DNA of 64,000 nucleotides. Source: an uncultured Planctomycetota bacterium (lineage in GTDB: Bacteria > Planctomycetota > Planctomycetia > Gemmatales > Gemmataceae). The first letter of the stretch is position 1; every line of letters starts with the position of its first letter. The stretch spans positions 224,001 to 288,000 of the forward strand of contig CAWKHF010000005.1 of NCBI GenBank assembly GCA_963849325.1. Reading direction: 5' to 3'. The notes beneath the pieces are model-generated. The model did not search any database, had not been told where the DNA came from, and saw only the letters and a program-made list of their open reading frames with translations. The translations under genes and the position numbers were made by a program. Positions 2,321-27,006 of this stretch are shown here, piece after piece.

Positions 2321-2520
2321 GATCGGACCACTCCGCGACGAACAGGCTTTTTCGAGCGCTGAGAAAGAGAACGTCCTCCCGTTGTATCCTCGATTTCGCG
2401 CCGCCGCAATTGTCTTCTTCTCGGAAGGACGTTCCTCCGGCGCAGGCGCGAGTCGAAGCGATTTGTTACACTCGTCGTTGTGCCCCGCCGCCATCCCTTC
2501 GTTCGCGTGAGGCTTCCGCC

Positions 2521-2847
2521 ATGAGCGCATCCATCGATGTCCCGGTGACGATCTCCCCCGAGGCCGCCGCTCGCATCGCCGAGTTGGGCATGCACCGGGA
2601 ACTGCAACAGATGATCGAGCACGTCCGCCAGGTCGTGCCGGAACTGGCGGCGATTGAGGTGGCGCGCGAGCCGGCGTATGACATGGATTGGGAGCCGGTC
2701 TGCATCACCGCCTACAGCGACCGGCCCTTTCAGGTCGGTGATGACACCTCGGCGAACTTGATCCGATGGCGAGTTGAGATGTTTCCGCCGCAAGTGCTCG
2801 ACAATCTATGCCTCCTGCTCAGCCCCGGGAGACCCCATGCAGGGTAG
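2521..2847 (+). CDS. Small hypothetical protein, possible antitoxin partner of the downstream HEPN protein
   Basis: 108 aa ORF whose end overlaps the start of the next gene by 11 nt. Confidence 0.65.
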   Translation: MSASIDVPVTISPEAAARIAELGMHRELQQMIEHVRQVVPELAAIEVAREPAYDMDWEPVCITAYSDRPFQVGDDTSANLIRWRVEMFPPQVLDNLCLLLSPGRPHAG

Positions 2848-3247
2848 GGACTTTTTGGACGTGGCTCGCAAGGTGGTCCTCGGCTCCGATGAAGCCCACT
2901 GGCGGGCAACGGTGATCCACGCCTCTTATGCCCTCTTCCTCGAATGTCGCGACGCCCTGACGCACTGGGGCATCGTCATCCCGCCGCGCCACAATGTACA
3001 CTCCGCGGTTCGGCTGCGTTTCCTCTACGCGACCGATCCGGACCTGAAGATCATCGGCGACTTTCTGGACGCCTGGGGACCACGCCGTAATCGCGCCAGT
3101 TACAACCTGGGAACGCTGATGGACTTCGCTTCCGACCACCTAGCCCGACTGGCGATCCAGGACACAACCGCGGCGCTGGCTCGCCTCGATTCCATCAAGG
3201 CCAACCCCGTCCGACGTGCCGCCGCCATCGCCTCGTTTCCCCCGTGA
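2837..3247 (+). CDS. HEPN-domain-like protein
   Basis: FLDVA..EAHWRATVIHASYALF..H..V..RNRASY matches the HEPN pattern (R.A.SRAYYA.F ... R..ADY). Confidence 0.7.
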   Translation: MQGRDFLDVARKVVLGSDEAHWRATVIHASYALFLECRDALTHWGIVIPPRHNVHSAVRLRFLYATDPDLKIIGDFLDAWGPRRNRASYNLGTLMDFASDHLARLAIQDTTAALARLDSIKANPVRRAAAIASFPP

Positions 3248-3326
3248 CCCTCCGAGGGAGAACCAAACCGGGGACGCCGCTCGATTCCGCGGATCGAGCG
3301 GCGTCCCCGAGTCCCATCACACAGGC

Positions 3327-4541
3327 TCAATAGACAATCGTAAATCCGCCCTCCGCTCGGGAGAAGACGGCCACCAAGCTCCAAATCGGGACGCCGTTGG
3401 CTCGGCCCTTTTCGGCCGTCGGTTTGCCGCTGGCGTCAAAGACCTGCCAGGCCACGGAACCGCCCCGCTCCCAACCCACTCCTTCCGTCCAGGCCAGGAT
3501 CGTCTGACCGCGCTTGTCGCAGGCGACGACGGAGTGTTTGCGATCGCCGGTCGCGCCGGGAGCGGCGACCGGGTCCGACCTCGTTCCGGTCGTCGGGTCG
3601 ATGCGGGCGTAGTAGACCTGTCCCTTGGTTTCCCAGGCGGCCCGAACGTCCGTGGCTCCCTCGGCAAAGGCGAAGCTGCTCATCGGACACGCTTCCACCT
3701 TCCACGGATGGATGTCGGCCCCTCGGAAGCTCGCTCCGTGGTCCCGCGACGTCAGCAAGTACGTGTCCCGGTTGACGCGATCCGTCGCCGAGCGGTACAG
3801 CAGGTAGACGGTCCCCTTGTGGTCTGCGAAGGCCCGCAGACCGCAGCAGCCGCACGCCCCGGTGGGCTGCTCGTAGGCGGCCTTCTCGGGGGCGAACGTC
3901 GCGCCCTCGTCCGTCGAGCGGGCCAGCCACACACGCCGGTTCGCCTCGCCCTTTTCACCCGGTTGCGGCGCGTGCCAGGCCACGTAAACGTTTCCCGAAT
4001 CGTCGGCGGCCACGGAACCGCCGCCGTCGAGTCCGGCGGCGGCGCGAATCACGTTTCGCTGGGCTTCAAAAGCCGTACCGTCGTCCTGGAGGCGCGTGTA
4101 GAGCATCCCCTCGATGCCGGGAGCTTTCTTGCCGGAGGCATTCCAGGCCACGTGAACGCGGCCGTTCTTGCCCACGGCCACCTGAGCGCCGCGGATGTTG
4201 CCAATGGCGATGGCGCTGTCGCGCACGCTGTTGACGCGGAGGGGGCGGGAGAACGTGGCCCCCTCGTCCGCGGAGTGGACGTAGAAGAGATCACCGTGCC
4301 GCGGGTCACCGCGGAAGTAAACCAGGTGAAGGACGCCTTTGCCGTCCACGGCGACCTGCGGCTGGATGCCGCGATCGGGCACTCGCAATCGTTTCACCGG
4401 GCCGGATGGGCCCTCTTTTGGGGCGTCCGACCTGTCTGCCCTAGCCAGCGAGGACGCCGCCGGCTCGGAACAGGCAAGCAGCCCTCCGCCGGCAGCGATC
4501 AGCAACGCCGCCGTTACGATTTTGCGCTTGGTAAGTCTCAT
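3327..4541 (-). CDS. BNR/Asp-box (sialidase-like) beta-propeller lipoprotein with CGCC motif
   Basis: Lipobox LLAC; Asp boxes SADEGATF, STDEGATF, SRDHGASF; ACGCC and WKVEACP motifs; AAGGAG upstream. Confidence 0.75.
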   Translation of the reverse strand: MRLTKRKIVTAALLIAAGGGLLACSEPAASSLARADRSDAPKEGPSGPVKRLRVPDRGIQPQVAVDGKGVLHLVYFRGDPRHGDLFYVHSADEGATFSRPLRVNSVRDSAIAIGNIRGAQVAVGKNGRVHVAWNASGKKAPGIEGMLYTRLQDDGTAFEAQRNVIRAAAGLDGGGSVAADDSGNVYVAWHAPQPGEKGEANRRVWLARSTDEGATFAPEKAAYEQPTGACGCCGLRAFADHKGTVYLLYRSATDRVNRDTYLLTSRDHGASFRGADIHPWKVEACPMSSFAFAEGATDVRAAWETKGQVYYARIDPTTGTRSDPVAAPGATGDRKHSVVACDKRGQTILAWTEGVGWERGGSVAWQVFDASGKPTAEKGRANGVPIWSLVAVFSRAEGGFTIVY

Positions 4542-18274: not shown

Positions 18275-18313
18275 CAACACCAGAAACGATTCACGCACCC
18301 CCGCACGCGAGAC

Positions 18314-20162
<1,849 letters not shown>

Positions 20163-20373: not shown

Positions 20374-22033
20374 ATGCGCCGCATCCGTTGCCCCGCTTGC
20401 GAGCGGACCCTGAAGGTGTCCGAAGACAACGACCGCGCCACCGTCTGTTGCGCCGCGTGCGGTCACCAGATTGTCCTCGACGAGCCAGACGAAGAAGCCG
20501 AGCAAGAGCGGCGCCGCTCTTCCTCGAAGAAGGGCCCTTCCCCGCGTGCCGCGCAGGACTGGGTCGGGAGGTCTTTTCGGAAAGATTTATGGCCAGATCG
20601 TCGAGGTCGAAACGGGGACCGTTATTCCCCGCTCCACGGGGAAAATCGCGCTGGTGATGGCGTCGTTGGGGATCGCGGTCGTGACCGGCTTGTTCAGTGC
20701 CGTCGGCGGCGGCTGGGCCGTGCTCGCCGGCCTGGGGTTTTTCAAGAACAACCAGAACCCGGTCCTGGTCGTGGCGGCGGGGGTCGTTGTTTTTCTGCTG
20801 GGCCTGTTCCTGCTGCTTCTGGGAGGGTACTACTTCACCTTTTACATCGTGCGGCTGCGCCACAAGGAGCGCGTCATCATTGGCCGAAAATACCTGCAAA
20901 GCCTTTTCGACGAGGCCAAGGCCAACATGCAGCTCCCCTTCGACAACATCGCGGCCATTCGCCTGGGCACGAAAGTGGAGGGCGACAACAAGTATCAATA
21001 CATCGGCATCGATCTGCTCGACCTCCAGCGCGAAGACACGATTCTCAGCCCGGCCGGTCACCAGTCGTTTCGCAAAGATTTCGACGCGGATGCGGTCCTC
21101 TTCGATGAGTACGTGTTGCCCATCGAGACGTTCTACCACAAGCTCGTGGCGCGCTGGCGAAAGGTTGCCGGGGTGGACGCCGAGGCCGCGGCCGGGACGG
21201 CGCGGCGGCGCCGACAATCCCGCGACGAGGACGAGGACGATCGAGACGTGGATTATACGGGTTATCGTCCGCCCCTGAAGCGATCCACGCGGATCGTGCT
21301 CGGTCTGATGGCCGGGGGGATGGTGCTTCTGACCGTGCTGGTCGGCCTGGCCTGGGTGGCGAAGCAGAGGAACATGGTCCCGCCGCGGGCGAACGTCAAC
21401 GGAAACCCCGTGCCCCCGAACCCGAACGAACCGCAGACGACCCTTCCTCCCCGGATTACCGGCGACGCCGCCCTGGACAAAACGCTTGCGGACATCAACA
21501 GCAACAACCCGTTTGTCCGTCAGACCGCCCTCACCAGCCTGGCCCAGATGCCGCCCAACGAACACCGGCCGCTGGTCGCGGCGAAATTGGCCGTTTTGGC
21601 CGACAGTCCGGACGCCAACACGCGCCAGGCCGTCCTGCCGGCGCTGGGCACGTGGGCAACGCCGGCGGAGGTGCCGATCCTGATCAAGACCCTCAACGAC
21701 CCCAACCCGTTCGTGCGCGAGGAAGCGCTCAAAGTTGTCGGCCCATTCAAGGACGAGCGTGCCTTGGCGCCGGTGATGCGTTGTTTTCGCAACCTTTCCA
21801 CGCGCGATCCGGCCAGCAAGGCCTTGCGGGAGATGGGGCCGATGGCGGAGAAAGATGTGCTGGCGCTGCTGCGCGACCGGGACGTGCTACTGCGGCAGGC
21901 CGCCATCAAGGTCCTCAAGGACGTTGGCACCCCGCGAAGCGTGCCGGCCCTGGAACAGGCGGCGGCCGACGCCTTCCTGCGGCCATCGGCCCGCGAAGCG
22001 CTGGCGGCCATCGCTGCCCGGAACAAGCCGTAA
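20374..22033 (+). CDS. Zinc-ribbon + transmembrane + HEAT-repeat protein (frameshift near 20500-20570)
   Basis: CPAC..CAAC N-terminus in one frame; TM helices and HEAT repeats (NPFVRQTAL, NPFVREEAL) in the next. Confidence 0.7.
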
Positions 22034-22172
22034 GGATGCGCCGCGGGCGGCGGTACGGCAGAGAATGGGTTGGCGCCGCGAATTCTCCTCAAGTCCCTCG
22101 GCGGAAAATCCGAAAGAATCGTTAGGTCTTCACCAGGTCTCCCTTTCGGAAAAGTTCGCAGGAGGACACGGC

Positions 22173-22763
22173 GTGTCATCCCCCGGGACCATCCCGATCG
22201 CGGGCCATCCCTTGTCCCGCTGGCTGATAAACGCCGGAGCAGGAGTGGGTGCGCTGCTGCTGGGATTGCTCACGGGAGAGGTGATGGCTTCGGTTTCCTT
22301 GCGGGCCTTGCGCTCGCCGGCGGTCGTGCGGGTCTGGTCGGCCGTGCCGCGATGGGCCGAGTCCGTGGATTTCGGGACGATGGAACAGAAGTTGGCGGGT
22401 GGGACCGTCATCCTCGTCGCTGGCAATTCCGTCATCGTCCTGGGATTCGCCATCCTTTTGTTCCGCCGCCGTCGCGCGAAACCAGGAGGGACCGACAAGG
22501 GGGGCGAACGCGCTCGGCCGATGGAAGTCGGCCCCCAACAACCTTGTGCTCCTCCGGCTCGGGCCGTCGTGTTGACCGGCCGGGAGTGGAGTCCGCCCTT
22601 GGAGGCCGCCGAGCGTCCGCCCGAGCCGGTTCGCCCCCAAGAGAAAAACGATGCGATGCTTCGACAGATTTTCGAGCAGAATCGGTTGCTGAGGGAACAA
22701 TTCGTCCGCCGAAACCCCCAGCCCACGGGAGCCCGTAAGTCGGGTGTGGCGGTCAGACCGTGA
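22173..22763 (+). CDS. Two-TM membrane protein with Pro-rich linker and short C-terminal helix, upstream of the MamK-like actin
   Basis: GGAGGA RBS then GTG; two hydrophobic segments followed by RRRR; ends 20 nt before the actin start. Confidence 0.65.
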   Translation: MSSPGTIPIAGHPLSRWLINAGAGVGALLLGLLTGEVMASVSLRALRSPAVVRVWSAVPRWAESVDFGTMEQKLAGGTVILVAGNSVIVLGFAILLFRRRRAKPGGTDKGGERARPMEVGPQQPCAPPARAVVLTGREWSPPLEAAERPPEPVRPQEKNDAMLRQIFEQNRLLREQFVRRNPQPTGARKSGVAVRP

Positions 22764-22783
22764 ATGCCAGGGGAGGACGTGAA

Positions 22784-23866
22784 ATGAGCAAGGAAATCGT
22801 GTTTGTCGGCATGGACCTGGGGGCGTTCAAAACGTCCATCACCTCCTCGAACGGGGCGCGCGAAGTCGTCTATACCGCCGTCGGCTGGCCGCGCGATCAG
22901 GTGGCCCGCAACCTGCTGGGCCGCGACGTGGTTTTCGGCGCGGAGATCGTCGAGCATCGCTTGGCCTTGAACGTGGTCCGTCCCTTCCAGAAGGGGCTGC
23001 TGAAGTACCTCGGCCACGTCGAGGCGGGCGTGCCCGAGGCGGAAGTGGAGAGACACCGGGAGGCGGCGCGGCTGATCGTGTCGCACGCTATGTCGCTGGC
23101 CAATCCGCCGGCCGGCGCCGCCATCTACGGCGTCATCGGCGCTCCCGCTCGGGCCAGTACGGCCAACAAGCAGTACCTCGTCGAGGCGGCGCGAGGGGCC
23201 TTCAACGCCGTCGCGGTCGTGTCCGAACCGTTCGCGGTGGCCTACGGCATGAACAGCCTCACCGATACGCTGGTGGTGGACATCGGGGCCGGCACCGTGG
23301 ATCTGTGCCCGATGTGCGGCGCCTACCCCGCCGACGAGGACCAGCTCACCCTGCCGGTGGGCGGCGACTACATCGACGAGGAGTTCCTGGATCGTCTGCA
23401 ACAGGTCTATCCCGATGTCCAGCTCAACGCCAAAATGGCCCGCGAGATCAAGGAGAAGTACGGCTTCGTTCACAACGTCGCCGACAAGGTGATGGTCGCC
23501 CTTCCGGTCAACGGCAAGATGAAAGAGCTGAACATCACTACGCCGCTGAAGGAGGCGTGTCAGAAGATGGCCCGCCCCGTGGTAACGGGCATTCAAACGC
23601 TGATCGCCCGCTACGACCCGGAGTACCAGGAGCGCTTGCTCAAGAACATTTTGCTCTGCGGCGGCGGCAGCCAGTTGAGGGGCTTCGACCTCTATCTGGA
23701 AGAGGGCTTGAAGGAATACGGAAGGGTCCGCGTCCATCGGGCTCCGGACTGCGTCTTCGCCGGGGCCTTCGGCGCCCTCAAGCTGGCGCGAAGCATGCGC
23801 AAGGAATACTGGGACGAGATGCGCAGCCGCGACACGCCTCGGGAGACGATGCGGGCCGCTGCCTGA
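22784..23866 (+). CDS. MamK-like bacterial actin (actin/MreB superfamily)
   Basis: GMDLG, AVGWPRD, VIGAPARASTANK, VVSEPFAVAYG, VDIGAGTVDLC, EDQLTL, PEYQ..LKNILLCGGGS, GALKLA..EYW; GGAGG RBS. Confidence 0.88.
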   Translation: MSKEIVFVGMDLGAFKTSITSSNGAREVVYTAVGWPRDQVARNLLGRDVVFGAEIVEHRLALNVVRPFQKGLLKYLGHVEAGVPEAEVERHREAARLIVSHAMSLANPPAGAAIYGVIGAPARASTANKQYLVEAARGAFNAVAVVSEPFAVAYGMNSLTDTLVVDIGAGTVDLCPMCGAYPADEDQLTLPVGGDYIDEEFLDRLQQVYPDVQLNAKMAREIKEKYGFVHNVADKVMVALPVNGKMKELNITTPLKEACQKMARPVVTGIQTLIARYDPEYQERLLKNILLCGGGSQLRGFDLYLEEGLKEYGRVRVHRAPDCVFAGAFGALKLARSMRKEYWDEMRSRDTPRETMRAAA

Positions 23867-23891
23867 GACCGCATCCACGCGGAGTAGAGAG

Positions 23892-23962
23892 CTACCCCGC
23901 CTGGACTCGAACCAGGAAATGCAGAGCCAAAATCTGCTGTGTTACCATTACACCACGGGGTA
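23892..23962 (-). tRNA. tRNA-Gln(TTG), CCA not encoded
   Basis: TACCCCG/CGGGGTA acceptor, GCAGA-TTTTGGC-TCTGC anticodon arm, CCTGG-TTCGAGT-CCAGG T arm. Confidence 0.93.
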
Positions 23963-24848: not shown

Positions 24849-27006
24849 ATGTCCGAACGAAATGATTCTCACCGCCTTGGAGCCATCGAGAACGGAGACC
24901 TGCGGAACGACGAGGGCGGCTTGCACGCGCCGCCGGGGTTGGGGCCGCTGGGCAAGGCGTGGTGGTGGTTCCACTTCGTCATTCTGGTCAAGTTGGCCCG
25001 GCTGCGCTTCCTCGCCGTCCTCGCGGCCATCGGCGGCGTCATCGCCTACTGGGACACGCTCAACGCCTATTACGAGAAGTGGACGCGGCCTCTCTTGGGT
25101 GCCGAAACCGCCGTCAGCTCTGGCACCGAATACTGGTGTCCCATGCACCCCACCGTCGTCCGCGATCACCCGGACAAGTGCCCTATCTGCGCCATGCCGC
25201 TGTCGCAGCGCAAGAAGGGCGACAAGGACGAGGGCGAAGCGCTGCCGCCGGGAGTCCGCCAGCGCGTGCAGATCACGCCGTACAAGGTCGCCGTCGCCGG
25301 CATCGAGACGGCCGAGGTCGGCTATCGACCGCTGACCCGGGACATCGCCGCCGTCGGCTTTGTGGAGTTTGACGAGCGCAAATTGGCTCGCATCTCGGTC
25401 CGCGTCACCGGCAAGACGCGGATCGACAAGCTCTACGTCAACGTCACCGGCCAACACGTCAAGAAGGGCGAGCCGCTGGCGGAACTGTATAGCCCCGATT
25501 TGGTTGTCGCCGTGCAGAACCTGCTTGATGCGCGCCAGGACCGCAACCGCCGATTGGAGGAGATGACCCGAGAGAAGCTGCGGCGATGGGGCATCGAGGA
25601 CGATCAGATCGACCGCATCGTCAAGAGCCGGCCAGCCGATCACCCACTTAATCATCCGTTCGCCGATCCACGGCCACATCATCAAGAAATATCCGGTCGA
25701 GGGCGAGTACGTCGAGGAGGGCACCCGCCTGTACGACGTGGCCGACCTGTCCACCGTGTGGATCGAGGCGCAGGTCTACGAGGACGAGCTGGCCTTCCTC
25801 AAGCTGGACCTACCCGTCGCCGCCACGACCAAGTCCTTCCCCAACCGCGAATTCAAAGGCAAGATCGCCTTCATCCACCCGCACCTGGACGCGGCAACGC
25901 GGACGCTGAAGGTGCGCTTCGACATGGACAATCCGGAACACGAACTGCGTCCGGGTATGTACGCCACCGTTCGCTTCCAGTCGTCCATCGCTCGCCTGGC
26001 GATGCTGCGCGAGCAGCGCCAACGGATGTGGAGTGAGCAGACGGCGTCGGAGCTGACGATGGCGGCGCTGTGGTCTCCGGGACTGCCGGCGGCGGGCGGC
26101 GGTCTGGCCTCGTTGCTGACAGCGGCGACGCGCGAAGCCATCGCCGAGCGCGACCTGGTGCTGGCCGTGCCCGAGTCAGCGGTGATCGACACCGGCAGCC
26201 GGCAGTTCGTCTACCGCGAGGCCGAGCCGGACGTTTACGACCAACTGGAAGTACAGCTGGGGCCGCGCAGCGGCGCGTTCTATCCCGTGATGGGCGGCCT
26301 GCGGCCCGGCGACCGCGTGGCGACGACCGGCTCGTTCCTCATCGACGCCGAGACGCGACTGACCGCCGGGGCCGCCTCCACCTACTTCGGCGCCAGCGGT
26401 GGGCCGCAGAGCGATCACCACGCCTCCACGACTGCCGCCCGCCCGTCGATGACGCGCGACGAGGACGCCAAGTATCAGGCGATGCTGGCCAAGCTCGGCC
26501 CGGAAGATCGGCCGCTCGTCGAGTCGCAGGGATATTGCCCGGTGCTGGGCAACCGGCTCGGCTCGATGGGTCCGCCGGTGCCGGTCGTGCTCCAGGGGCA
26601 AAAGGTCTTCCTGTGCTGCAAATTGTGCGTCAAGAAGGCGAAGGCCAACGCGAAAAAGACACTCGCCAAGGCGGCGGACCTGACGGCTCGGGCCAAGACC
26701 GGCGCGCCACGTCCCGCCCCAAGTCCGTCGCCCGCGCCGGGTCCGGGCGGAAAGTTGGAGGCCAAGGTGAGGGCCAACCTCGCCAAGCTCAGTGCCGAAG
26801 ACCGCCGTCTCGCCGAGGAGCAGAAATACTGCCCGATTGAGCCGGACAATCTCCTCGGTTCGATGGGAGTGCCGATCATCCTCGACATCAAGGGACAGAA
26901 GGTTTTCCTCTGCTGCTCCGGCTGTAAGGACGACGCCCTGGAGAAGCCGGACCAGACGTTGGCCAAGGTGAAGGAGCTGAAGGCCAAGGCGAAGAAACAC
27001 GAATAG
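24849..27006 (+). CDS. cusB: CusB-like RND periplasmic adaptor with heavy-metal-binding domain and two C-terminal YHS-like domains (frameshift near 25630)
   Basis: YWCPMHP..CPICAM, ADLSTVWIEAQVYE, LRPGMYA, VPESAVIDTG, FLIDAE; two CP..LGSMG..FLCC..C repeats. Confidence 0.85.

Follow-up and report, generated by a model that had tools for sequence, protein, structure and literature searches.

What does an actin related to the magnetosome protein MamK do in a planctomycete, and with which partner? The question is raised by two adjacent genes in a 64,000-nucleotide stretch of DNA (the window; positions 224,001 to 288,000 of contig CAWKHF010000005.1, assembly GCA_963849325.1) from an uncultured bacterium of the family Gemmataceae, phylum Planctomycetota. 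The downstream gene encodes an actin-fold ATPase of the MamK superfamily, and the upstream gene encodes a small membrane protein, here called the adaptor, that ends in a conserved amphipathic helix. We consider it probable that the two genes form a chromosomal operon specifying a filament-plus-membrane-adaptor module, in which the ATPase is paired with a cognate adaptor in the inner membrane.

To our knowledge, planctomycetes divide without FtsZ, and how budding, membrane invaginations, and surface pits are organized in them is a standing question in the field. A conserved, intact actin with a dedicated membrane adaptor is a testable candidate for a planctomycete cytoskeletal system. The available text of a 2025 review of the phylum describes mreB as absent from most Planctomycetia, mentions actin and MreB once each, and contains nothing on this actin family (PMC12673574). 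The abstract of another study mentions "planctobacterial MamK actin-ancestors" (PMC7203096). In a literature search that ran without supplements and had most subscription journals outside its scope, we found no published account of the conserved membrane adaptor or of its helix. MamK-like actins outside magnetotactic bacteria and the groove-binding principle discussed below are known; the type of partner and the wide, unremarked distribution are new.

The actin falls in a MamK-like clade distinct from magnetosome MamK

The two genes and the parts of the adaptor on which the argument turns are as follows.

22173..22763, + strand: adaptor gene, 196 amino acids (GTG start at 22173, stop codon at 22761-22763)
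22221..22289, + strand: first hydrophobic segment of the adaptor, residues 17-39, WLINAGAGVGALLLGLLTGEVMA (hydropathy scan)
22392..22463, + strand: transmembrane segment of the adaptor, residues 74-97, then RRRR (hydropathy scan, translation)
22644..22712, + strand: conserved C-terminal amphipathic helix of the adaptor, residues 158-180, KNDAMLRQIFEQNRLLREQFVRR (alignment, motif model, complex model)
22784..23866, + strand: actin gene, MamK-like actin-fold ATPase, 360 amino acids, intact (open reading frame list, translation)

The actin open reading frame (ORF) is open over 22760-23866 (+), and the ATG at 22784 was taken as its start. A preliminary description of the locus had read a series of motifs in this 360-residue product (GWPRD, IGAPARASTANK, VSEPFAVAYG, DIGAGTVDLC, EDQLTL, PEYQ...NILLCGGGS, and GALKLA...EYW), all of which are present in the translation, and had judged them to fit MamK better than MreB. 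Profile scores bear this out. The protein scored 379.1 bits over its whole length against the NCBIfam MamK model (NF040964, cut-off 400; 378.8 in the genome scan), 215.7 bits against the BeeR model (NF053558, cut-off 530), and 44-53 bits against MreB models whose cut-offs are 293-515 (for example, TIGR00904, 49.8 versus 365.75, and PRK13927, 52.8 versus 293). Pfam MreB_Mbl (PF06723, cut-off 27) matched residues 125-346 only, with 60 bits, and Pfam Actin gave 44 bits (cut-off 27). Among structures in the PDB, MamK (5ljw) matched actin residues 3-346 at E 2.3e-72, BeeR (8r2n) matched at E 7.9e-43, and MreB chains matched at about 1e-10. The ATPase motifs phosphate-1 (GMDLG), phosphate-2 (DIGAGT), and adenosine (GGGS), together with the catalytic Glu (Glu148 in VSEPF), align to MamK and are invariant in a 19-row alignment of the family. 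The protein starts 7 residues before GMDLG, with no N-terminal extension, and carries an 11-residue insertion (residues 77-87) relative to MamK. By these measures the window actin is MamK-like and not MreB.

For phylogenetic placement, a search of 1.84 billion cluster representatives yielded 987 proteins at E ≤ 1e-3 and 168 at E ≤ 1e-30. Seventy-six of 150 listed rows, chosen by eye as near full length, were scored against NCBIfam, and the 74 left out were mostly fragments of less than about 330 residues; 18 of the scored rows pass the MamK cut-off and nine are best matched by BeeR. The tree comprised 86 rows (the 76, nine family members, and the window protein), was rooted on the BeeR-like rows, and was inferred in a quick IQ-TREE run (LG+C20+F+G4) with Shimodaira-Hasegawa-like approximate likelihood ratio test (SH-aLRT) support only, without bootstraps. 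The window protein fell within a 25-row clade (SH-aLRT 99) from which all 18 rows passing the MamK cut-off are absent. Named magnetosome rows fell in a separate 13-row clade (support 92) that includes P0164 and P0209, the latter the cluster of the Paramagnetospirillum magneticum (AMB-1) MamK-like protein. Because seven rows are long-branched and the deep forks are unresolved, we claim only that the window actin, judged by its sequence, lies within the MamK superfamily in a clade apart from magnetosome MamK, and we claim no branching order. Family scores, PDB matches, and the tree all keep the protein apart from canonical MreB. Seen this way, the magnetosome MamKs make up a single branch of a wider family, other branches of which occur in non-magnetotactic bacteria.

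The tree also contained unusual domain arrangements. P0164 (768 residues; source name "Magnetosome protein MamK", uncultured bacterium) joins a complete FtsZ domain (TIGR00065, 351 bits) and a MamK domain (446 bits) in one polypeptide. A tight clade of 14 MamK-like proteins of 520-1230 residues (P0127, P0132, P0133, P0135-P0137, P0140, P0142-P0144, P0146, P0150, P0151, and P0174) has a long acidic, repeat-rich N-terminal extension before the actin domain, with the conserved start …KQKKDRFREWTKSLGES…, and six of the 14 pass the MamK cut-off. So do P0138, P0139, and P0157, from metagenome-assembled genomes named Nitrospira, Gemmatimonadota, and Nitrospinota, which most sources annotate as MreB or hypothetical.

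MamK (5ljw, 5jyg, 5ljv) is the closest characterized family, sharing its nucleotide motifs and C-terminal YW helix with the window actin, which differs in scoring below the family cut-off, in its separate clade, in its 11-residue insertion, and in having no magnetosome gene context. Saltatorellin, from the Saltatorellota, resembles it by description, in being MamK-like and in coming from a non-magnetotactic relative of planctomycetes. A fluorescent fusion of saltatorellin formed filaments in E. coli and M. gryphiswaldense, and the available text of that report mentions no partner protein (10.1101/817700). BeeR, the tubular actin of Verrucomicrobiota, is likewise MamK-related and from the Planctomycetes-Verrucomicrobia-Chlamydiae (PVC) group; the BeeR family polymerizes and bears a disordered N-terminal extension of 30-50 residues (PMC11929497). 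The window actin differs from BeeR in its score (216 bits) and in lacking that extension, and the BeeR-like rows form the outgroup clade. Since these close relatives (MamK, the BeeR family, and the saltatorellin fusion) polymerize, we infer by analogy that the 360-residue protein forms filaments.

A membrane protein with a conserved C-terminal helix is encoded beside the actin

As the preliminary description had stated, the actin gene lies 20 nt downstream of the membrane protein gene and beside a tRNA-Gln gene. No terminator-like site was found between the two genes, and the 20-nt gap from the adaptor stop codon to the actin ATG suggests that they are co-transcribed. The adaptor consists, in order, of a hydrophobic segment, a loop of about 34 residues, a transmembrane segment, an RRRR stop-transfer sequence, a Pro/Glu-rich tail, and the C-terminal helix, which was read as AMLRQIFEQNRLLREQF and is also written MLRQIFEQNRLLREQ. 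Its earlier portrayal as a two-transmembrane protein with a Pro/Glu linker and a C-terminal helix holds in that there are two hydrophobic segments, but the first (residues 17-39) may be a signal peptide, a signal anchor, or a first transmembrane segment. Because basic residues follow the transmembrane segment (RRRR here), the positive-inside rule would put the C-terminal tail in the cytoplasm and the variable part of the protein outside it. The window adaptor matched no Pfam family, and five of six longer adaptors likewise gave none. A sub-threshold gpUL132 match in one longer adaptor (22 bits versus 24.4) was taken as chance, and an ESM Atlas search with the window adaptor was uninformative (best score 0.76).

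Conservation was assessed at 81 loci, namely the window and 80 of 191 loci confirmed in a pattern scan of one genome per species. The same-strand ORF ending just before the actin gene carries the helix consensus A-[ILMV]-[LM]-x-x-[IVL]-[FL]-[ED]-x-N-[LVI]-x-[LM]-[RQ]. A motif hidden Markov model (HMM) built from 57 helix segments of these loci matched the upstream ORF at E < 0.01 in 77 of 81 loci, spanning several Planctomycetota orders, a count that is partly circular in that the model derives from those loci. As exceptions, L095 matched at E 0.08, L019 and L038 had weak matches recognized by eye, and L035 was recognized by eye only; L020 has no upstream DNA. Over 3074 six-frame ORFs, the model's other matches were a second tandem copy in L058 and three with E of at least 0.9. 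L058 has tandem adaptor genes (2326-3075 and 3079-3966), each with the helix motif, before one actin gene.

Two independent checks were made. Over 75,582 ORFs of its own genome, the window adaptor was the top match of the HMM (E 0.0022; next 0.66). We also examined 20 distant loci from other planctomycete families (actins 40-55% identical to the window's); 19 have an upstream ORF ending in a helix, nine of them recognized by HMM at E ≤ 3.4 and ten read by eye; L102, the sole exception, has no helix-bearing upstream ORF. Helices at the distant loci, such as LLKDIFQQNKEIRTQI, LLGEIFKLNVELRQML, and LLADLVSENRQLRQQI, are LLxxIFxxNxELR-like. When 47 adaptor tails are aligned, no residue other than the Asn is invariant. 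A hydrophobic transmembrane segment precedes the helix by 29-307 residues (median 75) in 75 of 78 adaptors, and many have an extra N-terminal hydrophobic segment, with 150-600 residues of variable, Pfam-less sequence between the two. The window pair has the same build: an ORF with a transmembrane segment and an invariant-Asn helix, on the same strand as the actin gene and directly before it. The upstream ORF is thus conserved beside homologues of the actin near and far (77/81 and 19/20 loci), as its proposed role as a partner had implied.

The adaptor helix is predicted to dock in a groove of the actin

We modeled the actin (19-row alignment) in complex with the last 48 residues of the adaptor (47-row alignment). 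The complex reached an interface score (ipSAE) of 0.76 (runs 0.78, 0.76, and 0.76), and the best of three controls reached 0.01. Among solved complexes, 116 of 157 attain the ipSAE mark, as against 2 of 215 mismatched pairs; these reference counts apply only approximately, since we supplied our own alignments. At least 70% of contacts agreed between runs, and the predicted local distance difference test (pLDDT) score of the partner was 63-64. On the helix side, the modeled interface spans K10-R32 of the tail, with the tightest contacts at L15, I18, F19, N22, and L25, which form the conserved face. On the actin side, it comprises T126, K129, Q130, V133, E134, A144-V146, Y154, L159, G179-Y181, and L334-D350; K129, G179, and L334 are invariant in the family alignment, and V146, Y154, and L159 are each conserved in 18 of its 19 rows.

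Following the canonical actin-fold layout, we take actin residues 126-159 and the C-terminal helix to be subdomain IA and residues 179-181 to be subdomain IIA, and we equate Glu148 with actin Gln137, which makes Tyr154 the counterpart of actin Tyr143. By these equivalences, the modeled helix most likely docks in the hydrophobic IA/IIA groove. This groove is described as a hot spot to which actin binders attach: on ParM it takes the C-terminal helix of ParR, on crenactin that of arcadin-2, and within filaments the D-loop of the next subunit fills it (PMC5173319). The window pair resembles ParM/ParR and crenactin/arcadin-2 in that the C-terminal helix of a neighboring gene's product is predicted to sit in the groove; it differs in having no sequence relation to them and in a partner that is membrane-anchored, not DNA-binding or soluble. 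If the prediction is right, a membrane protein would join ParR, arcadin-2, and the eukaryotic WH2-type binders as a further, independent case of a C-terminal helix exploiting the groove.

Together with the conservation of the pair, the complex model, which passes its controls, supports the earlier proposal of a two-gene module of filament and membrane anchor. The accompanying suggestion that the upstream protein is a MamJ-like adaptor survives as a functional analogy. mamJ lies directly upstream of mamK, as the adaptor gene does before the actin gene here. MamJ, however, is acidic and not membrane-spanning, whereas the adaptor is an unrelated membrane protein without a Pfam family.

The pair is widespread and patchy in Planctomycetota

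A word-indexed protein search gave 4116 matches to the window actin among 8000 scored candidates. The best 120 of these are 56-68% identical to it, and the named ones among them belong to Gemmataceae, Pirellulales, or Planctomycetota and are called "rod shape-determining protein". The titles of the 191 loci from the pattern scan are nearly all Planctomycetota, a few seeming mislabeled. Carriers include Limnoglobus roseus PX52 (L039) and metagenome-assembled genomes titled Gemmata, Fimbriiglobus, Urbifossiella, Rhodopirellula, Blastopirellula, and Planctomyces. An even sampling of the phylum gave an actin match at E ≤ 1e-60 in 141 of 401 genomes (about a third); counted over high-quality genomes only, the figure was 81 of 243, and over genera it was 103 of 288. 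Per family, the match was near-complete in some (12/12, 19/23, 10/11, and 8/8) and missing from all 20 genomes of one well-assembled family. The adaptor-actin pair is widespread in Planctomycetota and not peculiar to the source organism.

Among 40 genomes of relatives, a clear actin orthologue was found in two only. One, in the same genus (G003), is 59% identical to the window actin. The other, in the same family (G014), matches at 61% identity for 186 residues from its start and is disrupted beyond them: the gene (G014:C33:8334-9233; L013, L017, and L018) is split in three, its central part contains two in-frame TGA codons, and either decay of the copy or a fault in the assembly would account for this.

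A working mechanism and a possible cargo

In the reading we favor, the actin would polymerize into filaments, and the adaptor helix, hydrophobic face inward, would dock into the IA/IIA groove. Because this groove is buried within the strand, a general principle of actins, the adaptor would keep either monomers or a single filament end tethered to the cytoplasmic membrane, in the manner of ParR with ParM. Polymerization, as growth or shrinkage, would then be coupled to a membrane-embedded cargo or to whatever the ectodomain touches.

Gene neighborhoods offer a lead to that cargo. Clustering of the ORFs at the 81 loci turned up only two further recurrent neighbors, a secretin and a TPR protein. 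Of 80 related loci, 22 have a Tad-type secretin (Secretin plus T2SS-T3SS_pil_N) no more than 4 kb from the pair; when only the 42 loci with 3.5 kb or more of DNA on each side are counted, the number is 17. The TPR protein is near the pair in 16 loci, and one or both occur in 27, although the loci are related to one another and the counts are not independent events. The order secretin, TPR, adaptor, actin on one strand is seen at L071, L074-L077, and L033. Other secretin loci include L039, L053, L059, L026, L041, L084, L086, L088, L092, and L093; L. roseus (L039) has adjacent secretin and TPR genes, and at some loci the secretin is divergent from the pair or downstream of it. A secretin-like ORF lies within 3 kb in 3 of the 20 distant loci. 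Thirty-two neighboring ORFs from six loci, scanned with Pfam, included no CpaE/CpaF/TadB-type pilus genes. The source genome has orthologous secretin and TPR genes on another contig (C2:563684-567786), its secretin being 38% identical to that of L071.

The cargo may thus be a Tad-type secretin/TPR envelope complex in those relatives that have the genes adjacent, which we offer as a lead and not a finding. Extending this, one could picture a phylum-wide cytomotive actin system, comprising a MamK-like filament, a groove-gripping transmembrane adaptor, and a periplasmic link to secretin and TPR protein, of which the window copy would be a minimal form with its ectodomain lost; we think this extension unlikely. 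Were it true, the connection across the envelope could serve to place or move surface structures (pili or crateriform pits, for example) or to give membrane invaginations their shape, in bacteria without FtsZ and mostly without MreB. The preliminary description had imagined the pair positioning internal membranes or an organelle; the only recurrent genomic context is that of the outer-membrane secretin and the TPR protein.

Evidence against the proposed module

Several observations weigh against our interpretation. The pair is patchy among near relatives (2/40, with one broken) and therefore dispensable. No secretin or TPR gene stands beside the window pair. The window adaptor is the weakest member of its family (motif HMM E 8.9e-5 among the 3074 ORFs): it has Arg after the Asn, where others have Leu, Val, or Ile, and it lacks a GP[ST][YF] motif seen in many homologues. 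Its ectodomain is only about 34 residues, so that by sequence it is a minimal form in which this part is almost absent. For this family, filament formation and binding are predictions, and the helix-groove model is a likeness, not proof of binding; its passing score may partly reflect memory of solved groove complexes (ParM:ParR, crenactin:arcadin-2, and actin:WH2). Co-variation between helix and groove was weak, with 20 of 160 top-20 slots in the interface versus about 9.8 expected, a roughly two-fold enrichment from a crude mutual-information scan in which phylogeny was uncontrolled. The genome is 84.7% complete, and mam genes are accordingly "not found" rather than "absent". Frame breaks in two neighboring genes mean that the assembly may carry indel errors; the actin is unaffected by them, aligning end to end with its family.

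Alternative explanations

The groove site would equally allow a sequestering role like that of arcadin-2. Here the helix would belong to a membrane-bound sequestering or depolymerizing regulator (arcadin-2- or thymosin-like) that keeps the actin monomeric close to the membrane or caps its filaments and so tunes where it polymerizes. The predicted site is the same groove; ParR, however, promotes end-tracking through that groove, so the site is not decisive. Why a pure inhibitor should have a long variable ectodomain and a transmembrane segment, the latter seen in 75 of 78 adaptors, is also not evident. We judge this regulator improbable, at something like one chance among several.

Substitution for MreB and RodZ is a further step down in likelihood. 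In this case the actin would direct wall or shape, with its partner linked to periplasmic envelope synthesis, in planctomycetes without MreB. An actin-fold filament with a bitopic membrane protein reaching the periplasm does resemble MreB/RodZ, the adaptor spans the membrane and has a predicted periplasmic part, and the public name of the actin's homologues is "rod shape-determining protein". RodZ, however, binds through an N-terminal helix-turn-helix domain and has the opposite membrane orientation to the adaptor. Searches of the source genome (8.16 Mb, 14 contigs) found no canonical MreB, the top MreB_Mbl match being the window actin itself (59 bits) and the others lying within ORFs of 275-970 residues whose content was not examined; a profile search found no MreC. 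The 2025 review likewise gives mreB as missing from most Planctomycetia (PMC12673574). Against such a role, the actin scores 44-53 bits on MreB models that require 293-515, no peptidoglycan genes recur beside the pair, the public names are automatic annotations, and the patchy occurrence (141/401 genomes of the phylum, 0/20 in one well-assembled family, and 2/40 relatives) is unfit for a core shape determinant.

A DNA segregation system of the ParMRC or Alp type, brought in by a mobile element integrated beside tRNA-Gln, seems very improbable. It would account for the combination of an actin-like ATPase and a small partner acting through a C-terminal helix, for a tRNA gene 25 nt downstream, and for the patchiness among relatives. 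Yet the partner is a membrane protein without a DNA-binding family, no iterated, centromere-like repeats of the kind expected of ParMRC were found at the locus, no plasmid or phage homologues of the pair were found at E ≤ 1e-10, and no integrase or mobile-element genes recur in the neighbor clusters.

The genome contains one MamK-like gene by NCBIfam MamK scan. The magnetosome marker search covered MamI, MamP, and MamQ (MamA, B, E, and M were not searched): MamI gave no match, the control genomes being silent as well, MamQ gave none, and MamP gave weak PDZ-like matches only (best 34 bits versus a cut-off of 300). GvpA was also not found, in a search in which control genomes gave no match either. 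Within these limits, the absence of magnetosome, gvp, and mreC genes that had been noted for the window extends to the assembly as a whole. That the actin is an ordinary mamK displaced from, or left over from, a magnetosome cluster is hardly credible: MamK is its best-scoring family, at 21 bits under the cut-off, and magnetosome clusters are reported in Planctomycetota (PMC10653835), but its clade holds no cut-off-passing MamK, the marker searches gave the results above, and the same pair occurs in 191 species genomes.

Translation signals and neighboring genes

The remaining features of the immediate locus are as follows.

22160..22165, + strand: AGGAGG, Shine-Dalgarno-like, 7 nt before the adaptor GTG (sequence reading)
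22770..22777, + strand: GGGGAGGA, Shine-Dalgarno-like, 6 nt before the actin ATG (sequence reading)
23891-23962, - strand: tRNA-Gln, 25 nt downstream of the actin gene

Immediately upstream of the pair, a gene at 20471-22033 (+) encodes a 520-residue protein with hydrophobic segments near its N-terminus and in mid-protein and with C-terminal HEAT repeats (HEAT_2, 78 bits); it does not recur beside the pair at other loci. In four of ten congeneric genomes it had matches confined to the repeats, at 33-42% identity, which precluded a synteny comparison. Two further neighbors carry the frame breaks mentioned above. In a glmS-like gene (18291-20162, -), the GATase and SIS domains lie in different reading frames, and in a cusB/HlyD-like efflux adaptor gene (24849-27006, +), HlyD_D23 profile positions 2-105 and 140-214 do so; these breaks are either assembly indel errors or marks of pseudogenes.

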